Assembly: GCA_050944155.1 (NCBI GenBank)
Contig: JBMNQN010000001.1
Coordinates: 1-64,000, forward strand
Length of the DNA: 64,000 nt
Source: Candidatus Methanomethylophilaceae archaeon
GTDB taxonomy: Archaea; Thermoplasmatota; Thermoplasmata; Methanomassiliicoccales; Methanomethylophilaceae
Direction of reading: 5' to 3'
In this document: piece after piece, positions 220-42,425 of the stretch
Numbering within the stretch: the first letter of the stretch is position 1
How the letters are laid out: each line of letters starts with the position of its first letter
The notes under the pieces: model-generated
Told to the model about the DNA's origin: nothing
Seen by the model: the letters and a program-made list of their open reading frames with translations, nothing else
The model's database searches: none
Position numbers and translations under genes: made by a program

Positions 220-1246
220 TCTGCACTCCCGAATTTACGCTGAAGTGGTATCCGTCATCCCTTCTTTCCACTCCGAATCTCACGTCCAGGAAAGATTCGA
301 GAGTGTCCATCTGACTGAGAAGGTGTCTGCTTATGTTGGAAACTTTGAACGCGCTTTTTCCTTCGGCCATGGCCATGTAGGGAAGCAGCTGGTCCGCGGT
401 GTGAACGTCCACCGTGGCTCCGCTTTTCATCTCCTGAATCAGATCGTTCGCGGCATCGGCGCCGGTTTTTTCTGCCGAATATTCACGGGTGGTCAGAGCG
501 TTGCTTCCGAGACGTCCGTTTTCGTATTCCGCGACGAGACATATCCCCGCACCTCTGGAATCTCCGCGGGTGTTCTCTATTTCGATCTCCGCATCCGCAA
601 TCGGTTTCAGGGTTTTTTTGCAGGAACTGACTATTTCTTTTCCGATGCGTTCCGAAAGGTTCTGGGAAAAACATATGCCCTTTACCGACACGAGTTCTCC
701 CAAATCGCTCAGATCCATGGGAAGAATTTTTCCGATGGGGTCGAGGGTTGCGATAACGTGTCCTCCGCCCCGGGGGTAGAATCCTCTTTCCTTGATTTCC
801 GCCCGGGCGTGAATGTTCATTTTTTCCATGAGGGGAAAGAGAACCTGACGGTAGGAGTCTATGGGCGGCGCCCACAGGACGTTGGTTCCCCCTCGGATAT
901 CCACCGTCAGACGTTCGGTATGGTTTCTGGCTGCCAGCAGAATCGCCTGAAGCACCAGAGAGATGCTTCCGGCGGTGCCGATGTTCAGAGTTATGCTGTT
1001 CTTCTGTTCTTTTCCCGGAATGAATATCAGATCCGAAGAACCGGTGAAATTTCCCTCGACTTCCGATCCGGTCATTTCCGCCACGGCGCTGATTGCGGCG
1101 CAGTGCTGTTTGGAAAGGCCGTTGGTGGGTCTGTTTTCCCTTATTCTCGTAAGGTGCGTGGGAATGCCCGTGACCGCAGACAGGGCAACCGAGGTACGGA
1201 CCATCTGTCCGCCGCCTTCACCTCTGGAGCTGTCTATCTCGAGCAT
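197..1246 (-). CDS. rtcA: RNA 3'-terminal phosphate cyclase
   Basis: N-terminal LEIDSSRGEGGGQMVRT, RPTNGLSKQH, RGFYPRGGG, and DVHTADQLLPY with the catalytic His. Start placed at MLEID behind a GGAGG site. Confidence 0.93.
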   Translation of the reverse strand: MLEIDSSRGEGGGQMVRTSVALSAVTGIPTHLTRIRENRPTNGLSKQHCAAISAVAEMTGSEVEGNFTGSSDLIFIPGKEQKNSITLNIGTAGSISLVLQAILLAARNHTERLTVDIRGGTNVLWAPPIDSYRQVLFPLMEKMNIHARAEIKERGFYPRGGGHVIATLDPIGKILPMDLSDLGELVSVKGICFSQNLSERIGKEIVSSCKKTLKPIADAEIEIENTRGDSRGAGICLVAEYENGRLGSNALTTREYSAEKTGADAANDLIQEMKSGATVDVHTADQLLPYMAMAEGKSAFKVSNISRHLLSQMDTLESFLDVRFGVERRDDGYHFSVNSGVQNETVRTD

Positions 1247-1301
1247 AATATCACTGCCTCCGAATGGTATGAGAATCATATAGACTTAACGAGGGCAAAG
1301 G

Positions 1302-1373
1302 TGCGGCCGCCGGGATTTGAACCCGGGTCAGAAGCTTGGGAAGCTCCCGTCCTGACCGCTGGACTACGGCCGC
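1302..1373 (-). tRNA. tRNA-Gly(CCC)
   Basis: Reverse complement GCGGCCGTAGTCCAGCGGTCAGGACGGGAGCTTCCCAAGCTTCTGACCCGGGTTCAAATCCCGGCGGCCGCA folds as a cloverleaf with anticodon CCC. Confidence 0.95.
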
Positions 1374-1619
1374 TCAGATTCGGAATTCCGTACTTTATAA
1401 TAAATATGAGCCTCTTTCCGCCGTTTTCCGCATTGATGCAGGGATACTGTGCGGTATTTTCCTGCGGAATCCGGTTATTCGGTTATAACGGGAAACCGGA
1501 TCCGAAAAGACGGCACAGAGGCACCGGTCCGGTCTCGGTACCGATAATGTTTCTTCGGATTGCGGAACGGGGGCACTCTGCCATGTCTTTTAATACTGCT
1601 TAGATATTCGTTGTGGCGC

Positions 1620-1692
1620 GGGCTCGTGGTCTAGTGGTTATGACGTCGCCCTTACAAGGCGAAGGCCGCCGGTTCAATTCCGGCCGAGCCCA
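1620..1692 (+). tRNA. tRNA-Val(TAC)
   Basis: GGGCTCGTGGTCTAGTGGTTATGACGTCGCCCTTACAAGGCGAAGGCCGCCGGTTCAATTCCGGCCGAGCCCA; anticodon stem TCGCC/GGCGA, anticodon TAC; followed by T-rich tracts. Confidence 0.96.
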
Positions 1693-1754
1693 CTTTCTGA
1701 AAAAATCTCTGGGAGTTCTTCCGAAGCAGTCTTCTTTTTTTTGAAATTTCGGGA

Positions 1755-1846
1755 AAATAAAGCGCACCGGAATGCGAAGGAGGAAGAACCCGCGACAAAC
1801 AGGGGCATTCCGGTGTGATGTCCTGAGTGGACATATCATCCATCCA
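1755..1846 (-). ncRNA. candidate structured small RNA, copy A of a tandem pair
   Basis: Hairpin ATGTCC/GGACAT followed by an 11-bp stem CACCGGAATGC/GCATTCCGGTG enclosing TTCTTCCTCCTT. TATA-like TTTATTAAC upstream (1859-1867) and a T-rich 3' end. Confidence 0.6.
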
Positions 1847-2048
1847 TATGTTGCCGCAGTTAATAAACTCTTGCATCAAAGCCGTGTTTTCCGCCGAAAC
1901 GTTATTCCGACCGTAAGCCGAAGAAACAAAGCGCACCGGAACGCTAAGGAGGAAGAACCCACGAGAAACGGGGCGCGTTCCGGTGTGAGGTCCATATATG
2001 GACACATCATCCATCCATTAATTAACCTTGTTAATAAACCTTTTGCAT
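1758..2048. repeat. two imperfect direct repeats of about 120 bp (1758-1876 and 1928-2048), period about 170 bp
   Basis: Shared blocks aaagcgcaccggaa, aaggaggaagaaccc, ttccggtgtga, atcatccatccat, gttaataaac and ttgcat. Confidence 0.92.
1925..2017 (-). ncRNA. candidate structured small RNA, copy B of a tandem pair
   Basis: Stem CACCGGAACGC/GCGTTCCGGTG (compensatory change relative to copy A), the same TTCTTCCTCCTT loop, TATA-like TTTATTAAC at 2030-2038. Confidence 0.6.
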
Positions 2049-2098
2049 TTCCGGTACGGTTTTTTACCGGATTTCCGCAGAATAATGCTGCAGGGAGA

Positions 2099-2174
2099 TG
2101 GTGGGCCCGGCCGGATTTGAACCGGCGGCCTTCGCCGTGTGAAGGCGACGTCATAACCCCTAGACCACGAGCCC
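2099..2174 (-). tRNA. tRNA-Val(CAC), CCA encoded
   Basis: Reverse complement GGGCTCGTGGTCTAGGGGTTATGACGTCGCCTTCACACGGCGAAGGCCGCCGGTTCAAATCCGGCCGGGCCCACCA. Confidence 0.96.
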
Positions 2175-2273
2175 GAACATGCGACAGATGGCATTTTCTT
2201 ATTTAATTATGCTACTTTGCCGGAGGCCGTAAACGGGAATAAAGATTAACATTCCGATGCCGTTGTCCGCCGC

Positions 2274-3656
2274 ATGCCGGATTCCTCGGAGAACAAAACG
2301 GGCAGAAGCGAAAAAGAACTTTTTCAGAGAGCTTTCGATAACATCCTGAACACGGAAAAGAAAGACTATCCCAGTTACATGGGAGGCCTGTCCGTAGCTT
2401 CGGGAAGAGATTACGAACTTGCAAGTCCGATAGATGGCACGATTATTTTCGGCCGGGTTCAGGTTCCGGAAAAAGGAACGGCCGCAGAGGCCGTCGGATA
2501 CGCGGAAAGGGCATTTGCGTCCTGGTCGGCGAAATCCGGAGCGGAAAGGGCAGAATTGTTCGGAAACGTCCTGAAAAGGGTCAGGGCCCAGAGATACATC
2601 CTCGCGTCTTACGTCATGCTCAGTACCGGAATGTCGGAGAAAGACTGTTTGGCGGAAGCCGACGGTCTCGCTTCCGCGATAGAAAAGGCGTGTGAAGACG
2701 AAATCAAGGGGGAAGGTTCCCCTGCAGGAGTTTGGGGAATCCTGTCCGATCACGTTTCGCCTCTGGCATTCCCCGCCGCCGCGGCAGCGTGTGCGATGAT
2801 TTCCGGAAACACCGTGGTGTGCATACCATCCGCCGGATGTCCCGTGCCCATGTTCGTTTTCTACGGAATTCTTACGGCAGCAGGCCTACCTCCGGGAGTG
2901 TTCAATATCGTTCCCGGAGGAATGAGAGAAGACGCCGAAATCGCAGGCGAACCGGCGCTGAAAGGAATCGCGGCGTCGGTAAGCGGAAAAAGAGCGGAAG
3001 AACTGATTTTCCTGCCCGCCGACGAAGAACTGATGTTCGTCAACGAAATAAAGGGAATGAACCCCATAGCCGTTCACAAACCCGGTGATATGAAAGCGAC
3101 CGCCGCAAGCATAATCGAATCGGCGTTCAGAAGCTCCGGACAGAGGCTTTACTCCTGCTCCAAGGTCATAACAACCCACGGCGAAAGAGAAAAACTCGTA
3201 TCCGAACTTCTTTCCGCCGTAAAATCCCTGAAAGTCGGAGACCCTGCCGAGGAAGGAACTTCCGCAGGACCGATATTTTCGGAAGAAGATTACAAAAGGT
3301 TCGTTTCGTTGGCCGACGAACTCCGCTCCGACGTCATATACGGAGGGAAATCTGCCTCCGAAGGCGGACGTTACGTCACGCCGATGATAGTTTCCGGTTC
3401 GGATCCGGAATCGCCCGTAAGATACTCCGACACGGGTCTGCCCGTTCTTGCCGTTGTCTCCCTTTCCGATTTCGGAGAGATGATGGAAGAGATGGAAGAA
3501 ACCGAATGCGGCCTTTCCGCTTCCCTGTTTTCGGAGAACAAATCTTCGATCGGTATCTTCGGGAAGTACGCGGGAGCCGAAACAATCAACATCAACAGAG
3601 GAACGGAAAATCTGGTTCCCGCTTCAAACATAAACCGCGGACTGTTCCTGAAGTAA
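2274..3656 (+). CDS. aldehyde dehydrogenase family protein (P5C-dehydrogenase-like, degenerate active site)
   Basis: ALDH fold motifs GNTVV, AGLPPGVFNIVPG, SAFxxSGQ, LKVGDP, GRYVTPMIV and CGLSASLFS; the catalytic Cys position reads GQRL. Confidence 0.75.
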   Translation: MPDSSENKTGRSEKELFQRAFDNILNTEKKDYPSYMGGLSVASGRDYELASPIDGTIIFGRVQVPEKGTAAEAVGYAERAFASWSAKSGAERAELFGNVLKRVRAQRYILASYVMLSTGMSEKDCLAEADGLASAIEKACEDEIKGEGSPAGVWGILSDHVSPLAFPAAAAACAMISGNTVVCIPSAGCPVPMFVFYGILTAAGLPPGVFNIVPGGMREDAEIAGEPALKGIAASVSGKRAEELIFLPADEELMFVNEIKGMNPIAVHKPGDMKATAASIIESAFRSSGQRLYSCSKVITTHGEREKLVSELLSAVKSLKVGDPAEEGTSAGPIFSEEDYKRFVSLADELRSDVIYGGKSASEGGRYVTPMIVSGSDPESPVRYSDTGLPVLAVVSLSDFGEMMEEMEETECGLSASLFSENKSSIGIFGKYAGAETININRGTENLVPASNINRGLFLK

Positions 3657-3657
3657 A

Positions 3658-4353
3658 TCACAAACCTCTTACCGAGACCCTTTTGACGAAAGGTTCGGCG
3701 GCAGCCTTCATGGAACGCAGTTCTTTTTCCGAATAGGGTTTTACTTTTCCCGCTTCCGGGTTCATGGTGACGCCGGGTCTGAACTGCTGTATGCAGAAGC
3801 GGTCCGCACCGCGTATCTTCGACGCTATTTCTTTTATGTCCTCGGGGGAAACCGCTCCCGGATAGACCGTGGTTCTGAATTCGTGGTCTATTCCGGAGTC
3901 GATTATTATTCTGATGCTTTTTTCTATGTCGTCCACTTTGCCGTATCCCCCCGTGGCTTCAGAATACTTGTCGGCGCGTAACGAAGTTTTTATGTCCATG
4001 GCGACGTAATCCACAAGTCTGGCACCTATGATATCGTCAAGAATTTCAGGATTGCTTCCGTTGGTATCGAGTTTAACGGCGATACCGGTTTTCTTCAGTT
4101 TTTTAAGAAGACCGTAAAGATCCCCGCTGACGGTGGGCTCTCCGCCGGATATCACGATTCCGTCCAGAAAATCCCTGTTTTTTTCTATATATTCCAGGAC
4201 GGTATCCAAATTCACGGAGTCGGCGCGGTTTTCTGCGACATCCGGATTGTGACAGAAAGGACACGAAAAATTGCATCCGCACAGAAAAATCATGCACGAA
4301 ACCTTGCCGTCCCAATCGGAAAGGGTAGTTTTCACGAAGCCTCCGATTTTCAT
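3658..4353 (-). CDS. nrdG: anaerobic ribonucleoside-triphosphate reductase activating protein (radical SAM)
   Basis: CNFSCPFCHNP, LDGIVISGGEPT, VKLDTNGS, VDYVAMDIK, HEFRTT. Confidence 0.85.
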   Translation of the reverse strand: MKIGGFVKTTLSDWDGKVSCMIFLCGCNFSCPFCHNPDVAENRADSVNLDTVLEYIEKNRDFLDGIVISGGEPTVSGDLYGLLKKLKKTGIAVKLDTNGSNPEILDDIIGARLVDYVAMDIKTSLRADKYSEATGGYGKVDDIEKSIRIIIDSGIDHEFRTTVYPGAVSPEDIKEIASKIRGADRFCIQQFRPGVTMNPEAGKVKPYSEKELRSMKAAAEPFVKRVSVRGL

Positions 4354-4420
4354 TTTTGTCGGATTCCGTATGGACGTTCGGTATAAAGAGAGTAATATAC
4401 CGACCCGACCATTCCCCGTT

Positions 4421-5959
4421 ATGGCACAGAAAACCGTAAGGTTTTATCCTGCGGGCAAGGAAATCAAGGTCGAAGAAGGCACCCGGATAGCTCAGGCCGC
4501 CAAAGCCGCCGGAGTGGAAATAAAGCTTCCCTGCGGCGGAAAGGGAAAATGCGGACGTTGCGGAGTATACGTCAGTCTGACCGCGGAGGACGGAAGAGAA
4601 CCGAACCCCAACGGAATGGAAAGGAAACTGGCGTGCATTACCCCCGTCGAAGAAAATATCGACATTTTCGTCCCCTTCGACGAGGACGGCAGAATCGTTG
4701 CGGGAGAAGACCGCAGAAAGGCGTACGACGGGGAACTTGTACCGGTGGTCAAAGCCCGCGGAAAAGTACAGCTGGGTCTTGCGGTGGATCTCGGAACCGC
4801 GGCCATCGCCGTAAGCATTCTGGATCTCAAAAAAGGACTGGAACTTTATTCCACGGTGGGCGACAATCCCCAGTCTTTTGCAGGAGACGATCTCGAATCC
4901 CGCAGAGCCTACGCCGATTCGGTGGGCGAAGAGAAACTCAGAAAAGCAGCCATAGACAGGATAAATGATTTGATGTACATTTTCGTCAACGATCCTGAAG
5001 ACATCAAGGTCGCCGTAATTTCGGGAAAGCCCTATCTGATGGAATCTCTGACCGAAGTCTGCAGCATGACCGGAGGGCCGTTCTGCAAAGGAGGAAAAGA
5101 ACTGGGTCTCGAAATCGGAGCCCAGGCGGAAATTCTGTGCGTCAAAGATCTGTCCGCCGAAGTGGGAGGAGACCTTATCGGGGGAATAATCGGTGCCGGA
5201 ATGGACCGTTCGGAAGAAAATATTCTGTTAATCGACCTGGGTTCCACGGTTCAGCTGGCACTCGGAAACAAAGATAAAATTTCGGTATGCGCTGCCGACT
5301 CTGGTCCGGCTCTGGAAGGAGGAAACGTGATTTTCGGAATGACTCCGTCCATAGGAGCGATAGACAGCGTGATGTTCAGGCGCGGCCGTCTCAATTATAC
5401 GGTCATCGGAGGAATACCCCCGGTGGGCATATGCGGTTCCGGTCTGATCGACCTTACGGCCCAGATGTATTCCCACGGGCTTATCGATTCCGAGGGTAAA
5501 TTCACCAAAAAAACCAAACCTTTCGAATCGGAAGATGGGCCCGCCTATTCCGTGGCGGAAGGAATCTACGTTACCGAGTCGGACATATCCGCGGTGCTGA
5601 AAGCCAAGGCGGCGGTATCCGTATCCGTCAGGGCTCTGATGGAGCATGCAGGCGTCGCTCCGGAGGATGTGAAGAAAATAGTCATATCCGGTTCTTTCGG
5701 AAACTTCGTGAACACGGACAACGCCGTGGCTCTGGGTATGTTTCCGGATGTCGACAGGGACAAATTCGATTATCTGGGTAATGCGTCGATGACCTATGCC
5801 AAAAACATAATTCTTTCCGAGGACGTGAGAAACCGCGCCGATGCCGTGCCGGGAATAGTCGATGTGGTAAACACCCGCACGGAAAAATACGCCGGGGATA
5901 TGATTGCGGCCAGGAAAATATCGGAAAAAAAGAAACCGAGACGGAAACTTTTCGGATGA
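4421..5959 (+). CDS. ASKHA-domain reductive activator of corrinoid proteins (RACo/AcsV-like) with N-terminal [2Fe-2S] domain
   Basis: CGGKGKCGRC...LAC ferredoxin domain; GLAVDLGT, LLIDLG, GPALEG, GICGSGLID, ISGSFG, YLGNAS. Confidence 0.85.
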   Translation: MAQKTVRFYPAGKEIKVEEGTRIAQAAKAAGVEIKLPCGGKGKCGRCGVYVSLTAEDGREPNPNGMERKLACITPVEENIDIFVPFDEDGRIVAGEDRRKAYDGELVPVVKARGKVQLGLAVDLGTAAIAVSILDLKKGLELYSTVGDNPQSFAGDDLESRRAYADSVGEEKLRKAAIDRINDLMYIFVNDPEDIKVAVISGKPYLMESLTEVCSMTGGPFCKGGKELGLEIGAQAEILCVKDLSAEVGGDLIGGIIGAGMDRSEENILLIDLGSTVQLALGNKDKISVCAADSGPALEGGNVIFGMTPSIGAIDSVMFRRGRLNYTVIGGIPPVGICGSGLIDLTAQMYSHGLIDSEGKFTKKTKPFESEDGPAYSVAEGIYVTESDISAVLKAKAAVSVSVRALMEHAGVAPEDVKKIVISGSFGNFVNTDNAVALGMFPDVDRDKFDYLGNASMTYAKNIILSEDVRNRADAVPGIVDVVNTRTEKYAGDMIAARKISEKKKPRRKLFG

Positions 5960-36548: not shown

Positions 36549-37082
36549 GTGGATTCTGCGCTGGATTACATAATCGGCAAATGCGGAGAGTCCGCATCTT
36601 CCGTGTCAGGAGAAGACCGCGGAAAACTGGCCGACCTGATAGTATCCAAGCGCAAAATTTTTATCTACGGTTCCGGACGTTCCGGACTGGTGGGCCAGCT
36701 TTTTTCCGTACGTCTGGTACAGCTGGGTCTCGACGTTCACTTCGTGGGAGAGATGACCACCCCAATCATGTGCAAAGACGACCTGCTGATTCTGGTTTCC
36801 AACACCGGAGAAACTGCTTCCGTGGTGAAAACAGCAAACATTGCTGGTCGTATCGGCTCTCACGTAGTATGCATAACGGCGGACCCTAACAGCAAATTGG
36901 CGCATGCTTCGGATACGGTGATTCTTCTGAAAACAGGGAAGATCAAACCGGAATTCGCTCCCCTCGGAACGGTGTTCGAACTTTCCGCCCTTATGTTTTT
37001 CGACAGTTTCGTGGCGGACATGATGGAAAAACTCGGGTGCAGCGAAGACGACATGAGAAGCAGACACGCTATCTGGGTCTGA
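36549..37082 (+). CDS. 6-phospho-3-hexuloisomerase (SIS domain)
   Basis: FIYGSGRSGLVG, VGEMTTP, SNTGET, APLGTVFE, MRSRHA. Confidence 0.88.
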   Translation: MDSALDYIIGKCGESASSVSGEDRGKLADLIVSKRKIFIYGSGRSGLVGQLFSVRLVQLGLDVHFVGEMTTPIMCKDDLLILVSNTGETASVVKTANIAGRIGSHVVCITADPNSKLAHASDTVILLKTGKIKPEFAPLGTVFELSALMFFDSFVADMMEKLGCSEDDMRSRHAIWV

Positions 37083-37583
37083 TCAGTCTTCGCAGATTAT
37101 TATACATGCGTCTTTCTGTTCTCCGTCTTCCGTGCGGAACGCCATGAACGTGCCGTCGGAAGGGTCGATGACTATTGCGAATCCGGTGCCGTTTCCGAAC
37201 ATGGAAACGTGCGTTTCTATATCCGTTTCGGACATGTAGCATCCGAATCCGGGATGGGAATGGTACCAGCCCACAATCGAGCCTCCGGTTTCGTCCATGG
37301 AGGCGAACAGTTCCTCGAATCCTTCGGGATCGAATCTCACGCTGGTTTCCGTCGAATCCAGTTCGGACGTCGCCGTGCCTTCGGCCACCGCATATTCTCC
37401 GCCGTCGTCTCTGTAAACCTCTCCGAGAACGAATCCCATGACTTCTTTTCCTTCGGCGAAACCCTCGTCGGCGTGATTAAGCATATTTCCAAGCGCTGAT
37501 TCGGAAACGAATAGGTCCGCTTTCTTCACCGTGCGTTTTCTGTAGGTTCTTTCCTTCTTTTCGAAAGAGATGATTTTAGGCAT
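37083..37583 (-). CDS. JAMM/MPN+ metalloprotease, Rpn11/CSN5-like
   Basis: GKEVMGFVLG and IVGWYHSHPGFGCYMSETDIETH (E...HxH-x7-S-x2-D); AIVIDP. Confidence 0.92.
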   Translation of the reverse strand: MPKIISFEKKERTYRKRTVKKADLFVSESALGNMLNHADEGFAEGKEVMGFVLGEVYRDDGGEYAVAEGTATSELDSTETSVRFDPEGFEELFASMDETGGSIVGWYHSHPGFGCYMSETDIETHVSMFGNGTGFAIVIDPSDGTFMAFRTEDGEQKDACIIICED

Positions 37584-38061
37584 TGCCGTCACCGAATCTG
37601 ACTTCAGCCCTGAAGGCGGGTTTGTTTTCGATATACCAGCGGGACGCCTTCATGCAGGAATCCGTTCCGTAGGGACTCTTGGGATTCGGGTCTGCCAGAA
37701 GATTCTCCAGGCCCATGACGAACGACGTAAGGTTGGAACCGAAGTTCCAGTTGTCCAATATTTTCACGCAGACGTATCCGCCGTCTTCAGGCATCATTAT
37801 ATTGGGGTGGAAAATAGGGGTTTTCCAGGATGCTCTGGGTCTTTCGAAAGGATATTCTTCGGAGAGTATCAGTTCGAACCTGTGTTCTGAAGACATTTCG
37901 GTTTCAGAGATTCTCGCCGGCGAGTTCATCAGAACCACGCTAAGGGTTATGGGAAAAACCGCGTTCTCCGGAATACTTGGTATGTTCAGTCCGAGATACC
38001 CGTTCAGGCCGTTGATTTCGTTATTGATTCTTTTGACGAGAATCGGTTTGACCAGTCCCAT
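37576..38061 (-). CDS. ubiquitin-conjugating enzyme E2 (UBC fold)
   Basis: KRINNE, YPFERP, TPIFHPNI...GYVCVKILDNW, LLADPNPKSP. Confidence 0.9.
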   Translation of the reverse strand: MGLVKPILVKRINNEINGLNGYLGLNIPSIPENAVFPITLSVVLMNSPARISETEMSSEHRFELILSEEYPFERPRASWKTPIFHPNIMMPEDGGYVCVKILDNWNFGSNLTSFVMGLENLLADPNPKSPYGTDSCMKASRWYIENKPAFRAEVRFGDGNA

Positions 38062-38297
38062 CAGATTCCGCCTTCCGGGTCCGGAATCATTTCCACAACG
38101 TCGCCGTCCGAAAGGTTGGTTTCGGCGATGGTACGGCTTCCCAGAAGCAGTTTCGGCCCTTTTCTGAGGATGAAAGCACCCGCCCCCTCTCCCCAGTAGT
38201 CCGCCGCCGCATCGATTATGTCGGATATTTTTTCGTAAGGTTCCAGCTCCATCCGAATGGATGCTCCGGCCGCCGTGTTTACCACCGTAATTTTCAC
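38061..38297 (-). CDS. ubiquitin-like modifier precursor (ends GG-I)
   Basis: 78 aa; aligns by eye to ubiquitin with one gap; C-terminus PEGGI; GAGG ribosome-binding site; TGATG coupling to the E2. Confidence 0.85.
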   Translation of the reverse strand: MKITVVNTAAGASIRMELEPYEKISDIIDAAADYWGEGAGAFILRKGPKLLLGSRTIAETNLSDGDVVEMIPDPEGGI

Positions 38298-38307
38298 TGT
38301 CGTTTTT

Positions 38308-39066
38308 TCACTTCCTCGTATGATTCGGACAATCTGGATCGATATCCAAAGAAACAGTGTCCAAAGTTCCTTTTTCCCCGTTGTAGTACGTAATTCCGCG
38401 GACGCATAATTCCTCTCTTCCCGAAATAATCTTTTCGGCTTCCCTCACCTGCAATGCCGCGATTATGGACGTAGTGGTAATCTCCGCTGCGGTATGGGGA
38501 ACGAACATGTGGGAATTTCCCGTACAGGAAAACCTCAGTTCTGCGATTTTTGAGTGGGTGGAATTCATGGCGCACTGAAGACAGGGGCCGTCCGCAACGG
38601 TCTGTACTTTTCCGGACATACCGTCGGTCGCACCGTCGATGTACGGGATTCCGTAGTATTTCGCGTGGGAGTTCACGTGAAGTCTGGCACTTATGTTGTC
38701 GAGACATCCGAGAATCAGATCGAAATCCCAGGACTTCAGTTCCCGTACGTCCGAAACTATTCCTTTCACGTCGGCGTCGGGAGACAGTTCGTTCGCTCTT
38801 TCGGCAAGTATGTCGCATTTCATGGGTCCGCCCGCGTCTTCTTCTCTGAAAAACACGCAGCGGCTCAGATTGGATTTTACGATATTGTCCGTATCTACAA
38901 CGGTTATGTCCCTGAAACCGGCCAGAACCGAACATTTCACGGCTTCGTTTCCCAGGGCTCCCGCGCCTACGACGAGAATCCTGGAATCGGCTATGCGGTC
39001 GATGTCAATCCATTCGATTCTTTTCATGCGGTCGAATCTGTCGGAATCCCGTTCTCCGGTCTTCAT
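38308..39066 (-). CDS. E1-like ubiquitin-activating enzyme (ThiF/MoeB/E1 family)
   Basis: VVGAGALGNE, DxDxxxxSNLSR, LDNISARLHVN, Zn site CLQC + CPNH, candidate catalytic Cys in FSCT. Confidence 0.9.
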   Translation of the reverse strand: MKTGERDSDRFDRMKRIEWIDIDRIADSRILVVGAGALGNEAVKCSVLAGFRDITVVDTDNIVKSNLSRCVFFREEDAGGPMKCDILAERANELSPDADVKGIVSDVRELKSWDFDLILGCLDNISARLHVNSHAKYYGIPYIDGATDGMSGKVQTVADGPCLQCAMNSTHSKIAELRFSCTGNSHMFVPHTAAEITTTSIIAALQVREAEKIISGREELCVRGITYYNGEKGTLDTVSLDIDPDCPNHTRK

Positions 39067-39137
39067 CGCACGGGCAGAGCTTCCGTGTAATAAAACACCG
39101 CGGTCTGTTTTATACTCCGAAAGACTATCGGAAAGAC

Positions 39138-39335
39138 ATGGCGGAACTGCCCGAACATTCCCACTGCCTGTTCTGCGGCGACCCTGTCGCTTACGGAGAG
39201 CAATTCTGTTCCGAGGACTGCGCCGGGCATTACGCAAAAAAGAAGAAAAAGGATTTTCTCAAAGAAAACGGATTTTACATCATAGCCGCAATCGGCATAA
39301 TCGTTCTTTCCGTCATTTTCTGGATGATGCGCTGA
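39138..39335 (+). CDS. small membrane-anchored zinc-finger protein (DUF2116-like)
   Basis: HSHCLFCG....FCSEDC followed by a C-terminal TM helix. Confidence 0.78.
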   Translation: MAELPEHSHCLFCGDPVAYGEQFCSEDCAGHYAKKKKKDFLKENGFYIIAAIGIIVLSVIFWMMR

Positions 39336-40086
39336 GTCTTTCGCAGGTTTTCTTTACGTTGTGAACCCTGACGATGGCGGCTCCGTGCTTCACGGCTTCC
39401 GCAGCCGCTTCCGCGGATGCGTCGTCGTCTCTGCGTCCGTATTCGAATTCCAGATATCTTTTCCTCGACGGACCTATCAGAACGGGGTATTCTTTTCCGA
39501 AATACGAAGCGCTCCTGGTCAGTTCCGAATTCAGTTCGTGGGTTTTTCCGAATCCCACTCCCGGGTCGAGTATGATTCTTTCCTTTTTTACTCCGCCCGC
39601 TATCGCTGCCTCGGCACGTCCGTTAAGGAATTCCCTTATCTGCGGCTTTGCGTCTCCGCTCATTTCCACGGAGTGCAGCTCGTTCGGTCCGCCGTGCATA
39701 TGCATTATTATTGCGTACGAATCCGTTTCCGAAACGACTTCGATCATTCCTTCGTTTCTCAGACCGTATACGTCGTTTATTACGGTCGCTCCGGCATCCG
39801 CCGCGGCGGCGGCGATTTCGGGTTTCATGGTGTCCACGGAAACGGGAACGTCCGAGGAGGACGTGAACTCCCTTATGACGTCGACTATTCTGGAAATTTC
39901 TTCCTCTGCGGATACGGGAATCCATCCGGGGCGGGTGGATTCGCCGCCCACGTCTATTATCGACGCGCCGTCGTCGACCATCTCGAAGGCTCTTTTCAGA
40001 GCGGCGTCCGTGTCCTTGTAGGAACCTCCGTCCGAAAACGAATCCGGAGTCATGTTGAGTATTCCCATTACGGCGGGATACTTCAT
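39313..40086 (-). CDS. folP: dihydropteroate synthase
   Basis: MGILNMTPDSFSDGG, DVGGESTRPG, DPGVGFGKT, SRKR, IVRVHNV. Confidence 0.94.
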   Translation of the reverse strand: MKYPAVMGILNMTPDSFSDGGSYKDTDAALKRAFEMVDDGASIIDVGGESTRPGWIPVSAEEEISRIVDVIREFTSSSDVPVSVDTMKPEIAAAAADAGATVINDVYGLRNEGMIEVVSETDSYAIIMHMHGGPNELHSVEMSGDAKPQIREFLNGRAEAAIAGGVKKERIILDPGVGFGKTHELNSELTRSASYFGKEYPVLIGPSRKRYLEFEYGRRDDDASAEAAAEAVKHGAAIVRVHNVKKTCERLSASSRK

Positions 40087-41180
40087 GGCATCAGTCTGTC
40101 CACGAGTTCTATGAGGTCTACGATCTCGACGTTTCTGTCTCCTTTTCCGGCGCTGAGGTTGCTCACGCAGAAAGGACAGGTGGTGATTATCATATCGATG
40201 CCTTCCGCCTCGTCCAGACGGGTCGCGGATATTCCGAGGGATTCTTCGGGGAAGGCGCTTCTCACTCCGCCTCCGCCTCCGCAGCAGTGGCTCAGGCTGC
40301 GGTTATACTTCATCTCTCTGAAATCCAGGCCGGGGATTTTGGCTATGACCTGTCTGGGTTCTTCGTAAACTCCGCAGTGTCTTCCCAGGTGGCAGGGATC
40401 GTGATATGTGGCGGTGGCGTTCAGAGGTTTCAGATTAAGGTCCTGTTTCGCAAGGAATTCGGTTATGTGCAGAACTTCGAAAGGAACGTCCACGTACTTC
40501 GGATACTCGGTTTTGAACATCCTGTAGCACCCTGCGCAGGAGAGTACCAGGGTTTTGACTCCGAGTTTCTTTATGGCGTCTACGTTTTTACGGAACAGAG
40601 TTTCGGTATATTCGTTGTCGTATCCGACTCTCTGCATTACGGAACCGCAGCAGACTTCGTCGACAACCGTGAAATCGATGCCCAGTTTTTTGAGTACGGA
40701 CATGGTGGACTCGGAAGTCTTTTTGGAGCGGTATGTTGCCGTGCATCCGGCAAAGTATCCCACCTCCGCTTTGTGCCTTTTCACTCCGAGGGTTTCCTCA
40801 ACGCTTTTCTCTTCGCGGTACGGATTTCCGTATTTCACGATGCTGTCCGTCATGGCTTTGTGTTTGGGGAGCATGTGTCCGTTTTTCACCAGGTCGGCGC
40901 GGGCGGTTTCGACGATGTCCACCACATCCACTTTGGAAGGGCAGCGTCTTACGCAGTCGGCGCAGGTGGTGCATGTGTACATGTTTCTTATCACAGACTC
41001 GTCGGCGGGAAGGTCTCCGTTCACAAGTCCGTACGCCATGGTTACGCGTCCCCTCGAAGACGCCGTGTCCCAGCCTATTTCTTTGTACGACGGGCACACG
41101 CTTTTGCAGAATCCGCACATCGTGCAGACGTTCAGAGCTTTTCTTATTTTGTCGAGATTTTCGGTTTTTACGTCAGACAT
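40083..41180 (-). CDS. HdrD/GlpC-like Fe-S protein with two CCG domains
   Basis: CTMCGFCKSVCP and CTTCADCVRRCP; CCG motifs VCCGS..SCAGC and DPCHL..CCGGGGG..TCPFC. Confidence 0.88.
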   Translation of the reverse strand: MSDVKTENLDKIRKALNVCTMCGFCKSVCPSYKEIGWDTASSRGRVTMAYGLVNGDLPADESVIRNMYTCTTCADCVRRCPSKVDVVDIVETARADLVKNGHMLPKHKAMTDSIVKYGNPYREEKSVEETLGVKRHKAEVGYFAGCTATYRSKKTSESTMSVLKKLGIDFTVVDEVCCGSVMQRVGYDNEYTETLFRKNVDAIKKLGVKTLVLSCAGCYRMFKTEYPKYVDVPFEVLHITEFLAKQDLNLKPLNATATYHDPCHLGRHCGVYEEPRQVIAKIPGLDFREMKYNRSLSHCCGGGGGVRSAFPEESLGISATRLDEAEGIDMIITTCPFCVSNLSAGKGDRNVEIVDLIELVDRLMP

Positions 41181-41183
41181 GTT

Positions 41184-42425
41184 TCACTCAACTCTGGGAA
41201 TGGTAACGCTTCCGTCCATCAGGACGATGAATTCCGCTTCGGGATTCTGCCTCAGCGCTTCGTCTACGGCATCCTGCACGGAAGGGAACGCTCTCATGTT
41301 TGCTTTGTTGATTAACTCCGGATCTAGATCCGTTACGGCCCAAATCTCGGCCCAGGTCATTATCTCGGCCATTTTGGCGGCTTTGTGATATCCGAGTTTA
41401 TACTCTTCGCTGAGATTTTTTAGAATCTGTTCCGGACCGTCGGGACAGGTGAGCTGGGTAAGGAATGTGGCGCTGCCGATACCCTCGCGGCATTTGGACA
41501 CCATAACGATTTTTCCGCCTTTTTTCAGAGCCCACTTGCCGTTGTCGAGAGCCTTCTGGGACTGATACAGATCCACGTCCATGGGGTACGGAGCGACGGA
41601 AATGACCACGTCCGCTTTGCGGGGAATGGCGACGGAGAACACCTCGTTGGCGTATTCGACGGCCTTTCCGAAGGCTTCGTTCAGACCTCCGCTTACGGCT
41701 TTGTAGATATTCTGGTGTCTGTCGAGGACCAGCTGTATGGAGAATATCTTCTTTCCTTTCACCGCTTCCAGGGCATCCATCATATCTTCGTGGACAGGGT
41801 TTCCTTCGAGTGCCAGAGACTGCGCTTCCATCTTCATGGCCATCTTGTGGTTGGTCTCTATCGTCTTGAAAGAGGCGACTCCCGGAAGGAAGGATTTGCG
41901 GCCTCCCGTGTATCCGGCGAAATAGTGGGGTTCCACGCTGGTGATTATTACCAGTCTGTCGGAATCGACGGCAATTTTGTTGACTTCCATGGGAGTACCG
42001 TTCTTGGACTTACCCAGGTTTACGCATTCCGATTCTTTTGCGTTGTGAACGATTATGCGGTCCTTGAGACTCTCGTAGTGTTTTCCGAATATGAAGTCGT
42101 ATTCCTCTTCGGTGGGAGCCCTGTGGTTTCCCGTCGCTATGAGATATCTGGCACTCCTCAGATCCATTCTCTTGGAGAGTGCGTCGAGAACCTTGGCGGT
42201 AGGCGTGGGACGGGTTCCGTCGTTGACGATGAAGACCACGTCTTTCCCGCCCTTCAGGAAATCGCTCAGGGATTCCGATCCGACGGGAGAGTCTATGGAC
42301 TCTCCGATGGTTTTGTCCACGGGTCCGCAGACGACGTCCTTCGGGTAGTACGCCCCTATGTAGTTCTTGTCAGGGATTTCGGCAGGCAGGGACCCATCCT
42401 TTCCGTACTTGATATCGATGTTCAT
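41184..42425 (-). CDS. larA: nickel-pincer-dependent lactate racemase family protein
   Basis: DGTRPTP, ATGNHR, EPHYFAGYTGGRKS, TNH, GNPVHEDM, DLYQSQKAL. Confidence 0.88.
   Translation of the reverse strand: MNIDIKYGKDGSLPAEIPDKNYIGAYYPKDVVCGPVDKTIGESIDSPVGSESLSDFLKGGKDVVFIVNDGTRPTPTAKVLDALSKRMDLRSARYLIATGNHRAPTEEEYDFIFGKHYESLKDRIIVHNAKESECVNLGKSKNGTPMEVNKIAVDSDRLVIITSVEPHYFAGYTGGRKSFLPGVASFKTIETNHKMAMKMEAQSLALEGNPVHEDMMDALEAVKGKKIFSIQLVLDRHQNIYKAVSGGLNEAFGKAVEYANEVFSVAIPRKADVVISVAPYPMDVDLYQSQKALDNGKWALKKGGKIVMVSKCREGIGSATFLTQLTCPDGPEQILKNLSEEYKLGYHKAAKMAEIMTWAEIWAVTDLDPELINKANMRAFPSVQDAVDEALRQNPEAEFIVLMDGSVTIPRVE

Follow-up and report, generated by a model that had tools for sequence, protein, structure and literature searches.

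The window analysed here, a stretch of 64,000 nucleotides (nt) from a Candidatus Methanomethylophilaceae archaeon (assembly GCA_050944155.1, contig JBMNQN010000001.1, positions 1 to 64,000), carries at 37083-39066 four open reading frames (ORFs) in series on the minus strand. They appear to encode a ubiquitin-type conjugation system made up of an activating enzyme (E1), a ubiquitin-like protein (Ubl), a conjugating enzyme (E2) and a JAMM protease. A preliminary description, made from the DNA letters, had proposed four coupled genes here in the order E1-Ubl-E2-JAMM, and the ORF list of the window bears this out. The predicted features are listed below, with lengths in amino acids (aa).

38308..39066, minus strand: E1, a 252-aa adenylating enzyme of ThiF/MoeB size, read from ATG
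38061..38297, minus strand: Ubl, a 78-aa ubiquitin-fold modifier precursor with a GTG start and the end ...IPDPEGG-I
37576..38061, minus strand: E2, a 161-aa UBC-fold conjugating enzyme
37083..37592, minus strand: JAMM, an Rpn11-like JAMM/MPN+ metalloprotease of 169 aa (GTG at 37592) or 166 aa (ATG at 37583)
39067..39137, no strand: divergent intergenic region of 71 nt between the E1 gene and a DUF2116 gene, with A/T-rich TATA-like boxes

The genes are tightly coupled, and the junctions read in the sequence as the preliminary description had given them. The E1 stop codon TGA is followed by 10 nt and then by the GTG start of the Ubl, the Ubl and E2 genes overlap as TGATG, and the E2 stop codon TAA overlaps the JAMM ATG (Met4, 37583) by 8 nt. 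Starting JAMM at the in-frame GTG at 37592 gives a 17-nt overlap with E2, and either start is possible. A longer E1 ORF, started by TTG and reaching up to 39237, overlaps the divergent DUF2116 gene (39138-39335). The E1 start is likely the ATG at 39066, because the relatives align from residue 1 of the 252-aa form, and the end of an RNA-library contig at 39051, near this start, is a weak hint in the same direction. Upstream of the E1 ATG lie two TATA-like boxes, GTATAAAAC and TTTTATTA, and the 71-nt region (39067-39137) would serve as the operon promoter. A scan for bacterial-type promoters and terminators, with models that are not applicable to archaea, found nothing above shuffle expectation.

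The genome (1.04 Mb in 27 contigs, 92% complete) encodes McrA (202.6 bits), and the named relatives are metagenome-assembled genomes (MAGs) of Methanomassiliicoccales and Methanomethylophilaceae, in agreement with the earlier, tentative assignment to a Methanomassiliicoccales methanogen.

Protein families of the four operon products

The E1 matched the Pfam family ThiF over residues 22-247 of 252 with 145.5 bits (cut-off 28.1; E value 2e-42). Its motifs are GAGALG at 34, SNLSR at 65, LDN at 122, CLQC at 162, FSCT with Cys181, and CPNH at 246. Across the class, where the homologues are 252-293 aa long, GAGALGNE, RfsCTG with the crossover-loop Cys181, and the zinc site CxxC...CxxH are conserved. 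The best match among PDB sequences was the active adenylation domain of yeast Uba1 (4e-23), followed by the SUMO and NEDD8 E1s; MoeB (2.8e-14) and ThiF (1e-13) both came behind Uba1. By its Gly-rich ATP loop and its crossover-loop Cys the protein is a member of the ThiF/E1 superfamily, and thioester chemistry is predicted for it.

The Ubl was modelled with AlphaFold2 (AF2) from an alignment of 25 homologues. The model, with a predicted local distance difference test (pLDDT) score of 90.5, has a beta-grasp fold in the order beta-beta-alpha-beta-beta-beta. Among the top 50 PDB matches listed by Foldseek nearly all were ubiquitin, and the others were NEDD8, SUMO, Hub1 and a Bacteroides ubiquitin-like protein. 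The best E value was 9e-7 and the template modelling (TM) score lay between 0.78 and 0.85 in all but one of these 50; for the top matches, which were ubiquitin, E was about 1e-6 and the TM score 0.80-0.85. When the Ubl family profile was compared with PDB sequences, ubiquitin-type chains again came out on top, with di-ubiquitin at about 5e-5 and single ubiquitin from 0.011. In the tail IPDPEGG, residues P72, D73, P74, G76 and G77 are present in 25/25 sequences and E75 in 24/25. Nothing follows Gly77 in 10 of the 25 homologues, and 1-10 extra residues follow it in the other 15. A Lys at position 48 or 49, which the HMMER alignment places on G47/K48 of ubiquitin, is found in 24/25 and is only suggestive of chain formation. 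The family profile matched the operon Ubl and no other among the 6,421 ORFs of the genome. In the ESM Atlas the nearest clusters of the Ubl are 'hypothetical protein' clusters of Thermoplasmatota; YukD, TmoB and Rad60-SLD/ubiquitin appear in distant rows at about 0.90-0.91, as leads only. The modelled beta-grasp fold and the C-terminal Gly-Gly together mark the protein as a putative modifier.

We took as a UQ_con E2 a protein that scores over the gathering cut-off and has HPN with a catalytic Cys about 8-10 residues downstream. The operon E2 scored 56.7 bits with Pfam UQ_con (cut-off 27), has HPN at 85-87, the catalytic Cys98 and PNP at 125-127, and is thus a UBC-fold E2 of this family; no Prok-E2 family was matched in the Pfam scan. 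Residues H85, P86, N87 and C98 are invariant in 24 homologues, and the pattern IFHPNIM...G.VC...W.F...LL..PNP is conserved across the class. The best PDB matches were the eukaryotic enzymes UBE2E1, UBE2N and UBE2T, at about 1e-10. The gene is present in a single copy and is the sole UQ_con match in the genome. In the representative library the E2 profile found 31 representatives at E<=1e-30, 237 at <=1e-10 and 6,294 at <=1e-3.

The JAMM protein gave 54.5 bits with Pfam JAB (cut-off 22.5), and it is likewise the sole match to its family in the genome. Its motifs EVMG at 50, HSHPG at 111 and SETD at 121 supply Glu50, H111-S-H113, S121 and D124, and the pattern E..G...GWYHSHPG..C..S..D is conserved across the class. 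The best PDB matches were Rpn11 (4e-14), CSN5 (3e-11) and the Caldiarchaeum Rpn11-like protein 6fjv (7e-8). With E...HxH...S...D in place, the protein belongs to the JAMM/MPN+ proteases of the Rpn11/CSN5 kind.

Every motif that the preliminary description had named, including Cys181 of the E1, HPN...Cys98 of the E2, the Zn ligands of the JAMM protein and the GG-I end of the Ubl, was found in place, and family, motif and fold evidence agree on the four roles. The conservation given above refers to 24-25 aligned homologues from about 20 families, among which the catalytic motifs of the operon proteins are invariant. Judged from these alignments, the motifs are not due to chance.

Distribution and neighbourhood of the operon

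Homologues of the E2 carry the name 'ubiquitin-conjugating enzyme E2' in Methanomethylophilaceae, Methanomassiliicoccaceae, Ca. Methanoplasma (including Ca. M. termitum) and Euryarchaeota MAGs, and the best 80 named genome loci are all records of Methanomassiliicoccales, Thermoplasmata or Thermoplasmatota. The E2 was present in 36 of 41 relatives and, with a protein query, in 94 of 201 genomes of the class; Pfam UQ_con was over the cut-off in 95 of these 201 genomes, and none of 14 well-known genomes used as controls gave such a match. Across the phylum a profile search found it in 78 of 301 genomes, and it was found in none of the searched members of several large families of the phylum (for example 0/47, 0/23 and 0/21). 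Among the pattern matches a relative is encoded in 541 of 599. Some large Thermoplasmatota genomes of 4-5.5 Mb (G334, G322 and others) carry 2-7 E2 paralogues, two of them in tandem at G334:C27:6223-7313, and these are a lineage-specific expansion.

Gene order around the E2 is well preserved. At 12 loci of the genus and family the order E1-Ubl-E2 was found in 12/12, and JAMM with a convergent SIS gene in 11/12, the remaining locus ending at a contig end. At 20 loci of other families Ubl, E2 and JAMM are adjacent in 19; the E1 gene immediately precedes them at 12 loci, comes after JAMM at 2, and at 5 was not present in the stretch that was fetched. At 13 of these 20 loci JAMM has the SIS gene as its neighbour, a gene for an AP_endo2-like TIM-barrel protein follows in most, and the cluster rpL18e-rpL13-rpS9-rpoN is present at 10. 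The operon thus occupies a stable core-genome neighbourhood (AP_endo2-SIS and rpL18e-rpL13-rpS9-rpoN) across the class, which argues for a vertically inherited cellular system and not a defence island. The preliminary description had favoured a cellular role over defence, and this is strongly supported by the shared core context across the class and by the lack of any PADLOC match for the E2 or the Ubl. It had also proposed profile and structure searches together with a synteny survey; these confirmed the parts and found the operon not to be confined to defence islands. The stability of the neighbourhood also means that the adjacency of the SIS gene carries no special functional weight.

Natural fusions tie the parts of the operon together. 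In the representative library, protein P0158 (249 aa) joins a Ubl ending in PDPTGG to an E2, an arrangement that requires cleavage after GG. P0149 and P0168 are E2-JAMM fusions, one of 682 aa with a zinc ribbon and the other of 534 aa with a PQQ-like beta-propeller. In two families of the class, JAMM proteins (L030:5520-8141, plus strand, and L032:5495-7381, plus strand) have C-terminal extensions of 450-700 aa of unassigned family.

The operon also occurs in reduced forms. In part of genus g8 (L150, G094:C1:1449042-1452209, and L151, G022:C3:25572-28727) the E2 gene is deleted and the other three genes are kept in place. The E1 there is diverged (269 aa), the Ubl (75 aa) ends in ...YYVVPMPSVSR with no GG, and the JAMM protein (133 aa) has WFRTSPDG in place of WYHSHPG. 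Read from these changes, the two loci are most probably decaying or repurposed, non-conjugating remnants. In genus g20 one genome (L149, G135:C10:18010-21204) keeps just a Ubl remnant (...IEVIPDPETYFGG...) between the DUF2116 and SIS genes, and another has nothing at the operon site; in genus g16 the SIS and AP_endo2 genes are present and the operon is not. Nothing lies between SIS and DUF2116/FolP in G196 (L156) and G030 (L155). The g20 and g16 loci have the appearance of a fixed site from which the operon was lost cleanly, step by step.

Several neighbouring genes deserve mention. The convergent SIS gene ends at 37082 and the JAMM gene at 37083, so that their stop codons abut with no spacer (37080-37085) and the two transcripts must either end within each other's coding region or use a shared bidirectional terminator. 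On the other side, at 39138-39335 on the plus strand and divergent from E1, the window encodes a 65-aa DUF2116 'probable treble clef' zinc-ribbon protein with a C-terminal transmembrane segment. Within the family this gene stays next to the site also in genomes that have lost the operon (G135 and G196), and it is therefore probably outside the system. Further upstream, at 39313-42425 on the minus strand, genes for a pterin-binding (FolP/MptH-like), a CCG/4Fe-4S HdrD-like and a LarA-like, lactate-racemase-family protein form one coupled run (a 4-nt overlap, then a 3-nt gap). This gene set is unusual and unrelated to the ubiquitin operon.

A RING-like protein encoded elsewhere in the genome

A six-frame search of the genome with zf-RING_2 gave one sub-threshold match, of 22.3 bits. 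It falls in the ORF listed below, a RING-like candidate for a ubiquitin ligase (E3) on a contig other than the operon's.

G000:C2:22248-22781: RING-like candidate, a 178-aa ORF upstream of pop5-psmA

The aligned family, with 18 members from the order, has an N-terminal hydrophobic (transmembrane) helix, an eight-ligand domain and zinc ribbons. The ligands C58-x2-C61-x11-C73-x-C75-x4-H80-x2-C83-x6-C90-P-x-C93 (C4HC3) are invariant, as is P91. The relatives are called 'hypothetical protein' in the sources, and a precomputed PF13639 match exists in 2 of 26. Compared with PDB sequences, the family profile found RNF4 (2.1e-6) and RNF165 (2.8e-6), then AMFR, Arkadia, ZNRF3 and Hrd1. Membrane-anchored RING E3s include Hrd1/synoviolin, gp78/AMFR, Doa10 and ZNRF3. 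With these and with Prok-RING_1 the candidate has in common a transmembrane segment, a cross-brace zinc domain on the cytoplasmic side in which a hydrophobic residue precedes ligand 2, and a final Cys-Pro-x-Cys; it differs from them in its C4HC3 ligand set, the 4 residues between ligands 4 and 5, the zinc ribbons that follow, and Pfam scores below the cut-off.

In the 29 genomes of the order that belong to the class sample, the RING-like protein is present in the same 20 that have the E2 (29/29 agreement), and it was not found in the nine E2-less genomes (G022, G055, G094, G213, G135, G196, G219, G225 and G030). The shared absence covers at least three loss groups (g16, g20 and part of g8), and the protein is missing also where just the E2 is deleted and E1, Ubl and JAMM remain. 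We then considered a modelled complex of the E2 with RING residues 50-104. It scored 0.68, compared with 0.01 for the best of 3 controls. Among solved complexes 58 of 80 attain the mark for this score, as do 2 of 110 mismatched pairs, counts that apply only approximately here because the model was built on our own alignments. From run to run at least 96% of the contacts are the same, and the partner pLDDT is at least 82. In the modelled interface, helix 1 of the E2 (residues 3-4, 7, 10-11 and 14-15) together with residues 72 and 106-110 faces RING residues 59-63, 83, 86-87 and 91-92, contacts which we take to be the canonical E2-RING surfaces.

A related arrangement was seen in family f19 (G052), at L025. 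There a 227-aa protein (4824-5507, plus strand) fuses a Ubl-like part with no GG to an E2-like part in which the Cys is replaced (GGTIHMSY). Its divergent neighbour (280-4638, minus strand) is a coiled-coil protein of 1452 aa with the same C4HC3 domain at its end; the domain scores 24.4 bits with Prok-RING_1, under the cut-off of 29.1. The same spacing of matches recurs in G157:C26, G163:C34, G121:C81 and G082:C26, and no E1 or JAMM gene was found in the stretch fetched around the f19 locus. By its sequence the fusion may represent a non-catalytic side branch of the system, similar to a UEV, and the arrangement is independent support for the RING-like candidate. A fusion of JAMM with RING was also tried as a Rosetta stone and rejected, since L030 (874 aa) and P0149 have just a zinc ribbon in common with the RING family (hhalign probability, 21% and 11%).

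Several observations weigh against an E3 role for this protein. The domain lies under the Pfam cut-off (zf-RING_2, 18.9 versus 27.3 bits), and the AF2 model (pLDDT 85.8), although its best Foldseek matches are RING E3s (E 3.9e-3 and weaker), has none at E<=0.001. The candidate gene is unlinked, and a search of the fetched flanks of 100 E2 loci with a RING-domain hidden Markov model came up empty at 99 of them. Because the co-losses come from related genomes, they amount to few independent events. Solved E2-RING pairs already exist, so that the complex model may pass by likeness to them and not through binding of this particular pair. Outside the order the RING query matches just the RING or zinc-ribbon parts of other proteins; such matches occur in families in which no E2 was found (f16, 2/2; f29, 7/7; f21, 3/3), and E2-positive f11 has them in just 2 of 8 genomes. 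Co-occurrence of E2 and RING at the level of the class was thus rejected as not specific, and the claim is restricted to the order.

The alternative that these points favour is a cascade in which E2~Ubl modifies its targets or itself directly and the transmembrane RING-like protein is an unrelated zinc finger that tracks the lineage. It has a parallel in print, as passages of Fuchs et al. 2018 (PMC6043591) place JAMM proteins in Ub-E1-E2 operons that have no E3. Against such a cascade speak the 29/29 agreement within the order, which extends to genomes with just the E2 deleted, the profile matches to RING E3s, the score and canonical surfaces of the complex model, and the f19 RING protein that adjoins a Ubl-E2-like gene. 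We regard it as unlikely, though well short of negligible. That the membrane-anchored RING-like protein is the E3 of the system we hold to be an even bet, and what we propose as new here is this predicted E3 candidate, which is unlinked to the operon and unannotated. The preliminary description had read the four genes as a complete cycle; all four roles were recovered, but it had missed this likely E3 encoded elsewhere in the genome.

The proposed cycle and its alternatives

We propose the following cycle, in which all steps but the fourth draw on family, motif and fold. The Rpn11-like JAMM protein would first trim the residue or residues past Gly77 where these are present. The minimal, presumably homodimeric E1 would adenylate Gly77 and load the Ubl onto Cys181, and the Ubl would then be handed to Cys98 of the UBC-fold E2. 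As a new hypothesis, the membrane-anchored C4HC3 RING-like protein might act as the E3 and direct transfer to lysines of membrane-near targets. The JAMM protein may also take the tag off again. Delivery of tagged proteins to a PAN/Cdc48-20S proteasome is plausible because all of these are encoded in the genome, with PAN at 568.6 bits (over the cut-off), two double-AAA Cdc48-like proteins and psmA. On sequence and model evidence, E2-dependent conjugation of the Ubl in a cellular role is highly probable. The full explanation, a vertically inherited eukaryote-type Ubl-conjugation system of Thermoplasmatota with the cycle as set out, is somewhat less secure and still likely. In the cell it would operate in parallel with the ordinary E1 of ThiF/MoeB type.

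Some results count against this reading. The Ubl lies below every Pfam cut-off (ThiS 12.6 bits, Rad60-SLD 11.7, and Pfam ubiquitin also not reached), and single ubiquitin chains match it at just E about 0.01-0.03. In the E1, ThiF spans residues 22-247 of 252, and neither a UFD nor another domain for docking the E2 is present. No match to the ThiS/MoaD (PF02597) or Urm1 (PF09138) family was found elsewhere in the genome, at 92% completeness, and the operon Ubl may therefore have an added sulfur-carrier role. A hint of expression comes from contigs at least 99% identical to the operon in four metatranscriptome libraries from 3 studies of biogas or anaerobic digesters, but these RNA-library contigs may come from DNA and are no proof of transcription or of a single transcript. 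One of them covers 37978-39051 (E1, Ubl and the start of E2), and the junction between E2 and JAMM is bridged in each of the four runs. The mapping covers these four runs, X5-X9 (with a tenth or less of the words) having been left out, and operon bins with no RNA contig in the four runs (e.g. 37128-37335) are uninformative.

A ubiquitylation operon of this general kind is reportedly known from Caldiarchaeum subterraneum, with Nunoura (2011) as the source. Among known systems the nearest are the operons of Caldiarchaeum (Aigarchaeota) and Asgard archaea, which passages of PMC5654768 and PMC6043591 describe as holding Ub, an E1-like and an E2-like protein, a small RING finger E3 and an Rpn11-like JAMM protein, and according to the former (Hennell James 2017) archaeal eukaryote-like ubiquitylation has been reconstituted only in vitro, from an uncultured aigarchaeon. 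The operon studied here shares with these a GG ubiquitin-fold modifier (a precursor in many members), a ThiF-type E1, an HPN...Cys UBC E2, an Rpn11-like JAMM protein and the operon arrangement itself, a likeness which for E1, E2 and Ub is one of description and not of direct sequence comparison. Like the Caldiarchaeum and Asgard operons, it also resembles eukaryotic proteins more than SAMP-type ones in its components. It differs from them in phylum, which is Thermoplasmatota, and in its E3, since they have a RING gene in or beside the operon whereas none was found there here and the candidate is unlinked and membrane-anchored. Their E1-like protein has a C-terminal UBL domain (legend of Fig. 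1 in PMC5654768), for which the 252-aa E1 has no room, and the operon JAMM protein matches yeast Rpn11 (4e-14) better than CsRpn11 (7e-8).

A second related kind is that of the operons of JAMM-3 proteins, which Fuchs et al. 2018 describe, in the passages at hand, as more Rpn11/CSN5-like than JAMM-1/2 and as located in Ub-E1-E2 operons with no E3 (PMC6043591). Their architecture is the one seen here, although the likeness is by description and those passages name no taxa. A 2023 preprint (10.1101/2023.07.25.550441) remarks on a 'Ca. Thermoplasmatota E2' that branches deeply within the clade of archaeal E2/UEV proteins, and Grau-Bove et al. (PMC4327156) give Ub toolkits only for Aigarchaeota, for one euryarchaeote of marine group II and for a crenarchaeal group. 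A literature search found no paper that describes or tests the operon in Methanomassiliicoccales or Thermoplasmata; it covered titles and abstract openings, supplements that may list such operons being outside its scope. The preliminary description knew of no such system characterised in this lineage; no characterisation was found, but the system has not gone unnoticed, since NCBI and JGI name the E2 and two papers touch on it. Already known, as far as those texts go, are the E2 by name and, in print, the Thermoplasmatota E2 clade and E3-less operons.

We next weighed the possibility that the Ubl is mainly a sulfur carrier, forming a thiocarboxylate as SAMP, Urm1 and MoaD do, with E2 and JAMM as accessory or regulatory parts. 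The tail of the Ubl has a weak ThiS/MoaD-like similarity (ThiS at 0.22; moaD_arch, 18.7 bits), the E1 has the size of MoeB and the same arrangement CxxC...Cys...CxxC/H, and the genome search named above gave no ThiS or Urm1 family match elsewhere. Sampylation of the Haloferax type (SAMP, UbaA and JAMM1) works with no E2. The present system has in common with it a beta-grasp GG modifier, a MoeB-sized E1 with a crossover-loop Cys and a tag-removing JAMM protein; it differs in that a conserved UBC E2 is a core part, and it does not qualify as a SAMP system, as the NCBIfam models of that system all score far under their cut-offs (UbaA 83.2/450, moaD_arch 18.7/49.5, desampylase 47.2/130). Against a sulfur carrier also speak the E2 with intact HPN...Cys, adjacent in 19 of the 20 distant loci and with invariant catalytic residues, the existence of a Ubl-E2 fusion, and the fold and sequence of the Ubl, which are nearest to ubiquitin and not to ThiS/MoaD. 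Where the E2 is lost, the Ubl loses its GG rather than persisting as a carrier. For sulfur chemistry a second MoeB/ThiF-like E1 is available (G000:C6:50750-51415), which is closer to MoeB/ThiF (7e-24) than to Uba1 (5e-21). We therefore consider a mainly sulfur-carrying Ubl very improbable. In a screen of the genome, 42 short ORFs end in GG plus at most 2 residues. One of them (G000:C3:79639-79833, minus strand) encodes 64 aa ending in ...IKIASGG, has a ThiS/SAMP-like shape with no Pfam or NCBIfam match, and is a possible partner of the second E1.

A horizontally acquired anti-virus defence module related to Bil or CBASS Cap2/Cap3 is the least credible alternative and is already largely refuted by synteny, for although BilABCD (Type I/II) has the same four part types (Ubl, E2, JAB deubiquitinase (DUB) and E1, the DUB removing residues after a conserved Gly; Chambers et al., in passages of PMC10557695), shares the Ubl extension past Gly in the precursor and an E1 with no UFD (same passages), and PADLOC gave weak matches of the E1 to Cap2-type E1-E2 models (E1 part, partial, best 6.5e-12) and of JAMM to JAB (1.2e-5) and BilC (0.0025), PADLOC matched 0 families with the E2 and 0 with the Ubl, Bil and CBASS are patchy defence operons whereas the present one is a vertically inherited part of the core genome with a fixed place beside ribosomal protein genes across the class, it occurs in one copy per genome in most genomes of many families, its G+C (0.51-0.52) is that of its surroundings, its E2 is a classical UQ_con enzyme with HPN, its best relatives are eukaryotic and not bacterial defence proteins, and it is not a member of the Bil/CBASS-Cap2-Cap3 group.

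Taken together, the locus is an uncharacterised archaeal eukaryote-like ubiquitin operon that stands out for being phylum-wide and vertically inherited, for its small, tractable methanogen hosts and for its decay series. The debate on the origin of archaeal ubiquitylation centres on Asgard and TACK. Here the same type of cascade is encoded in the core genome, as a single-copy operon found through much of a phylum of euryarchaeal grade, which bears on whether E2-dependent tagging is older than the Asgard lineage. A bolder idea, which we find doubtful, is that Thermoplasmatota ancestrally had a complete Ub system (E1, E2, membrane RING E3 and DUB) for a quality control of membrane or membrane-near proteins resembling endoplasmic-reticulum-associated degradation and feeding the Cdc48/PAN-proteasome. 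If it were true, E2/E3-dependent ubiquitylation would not be an Asgard/TACK speciality and would be either much older in Archaea or the result of a very early move between phyla, and an ancestral Ub system would be open to in vivo study in enrichable methanogens. The carriers are host- or digester-associated methanogens with small genomes (about 1-2 Mb), among which Ca. Methanoplasma termitum is a named enrichment-culture organism. The decay stages (E2 lost, Ubl with no GG, dead JAMM) form a natural series for evolutionary tests, the RING-like protein provides a concrete unannotated E3 candidate, and the operon as a whole offers a tractable setting for the role of a minimal Ub system in a prokaryotic cell.

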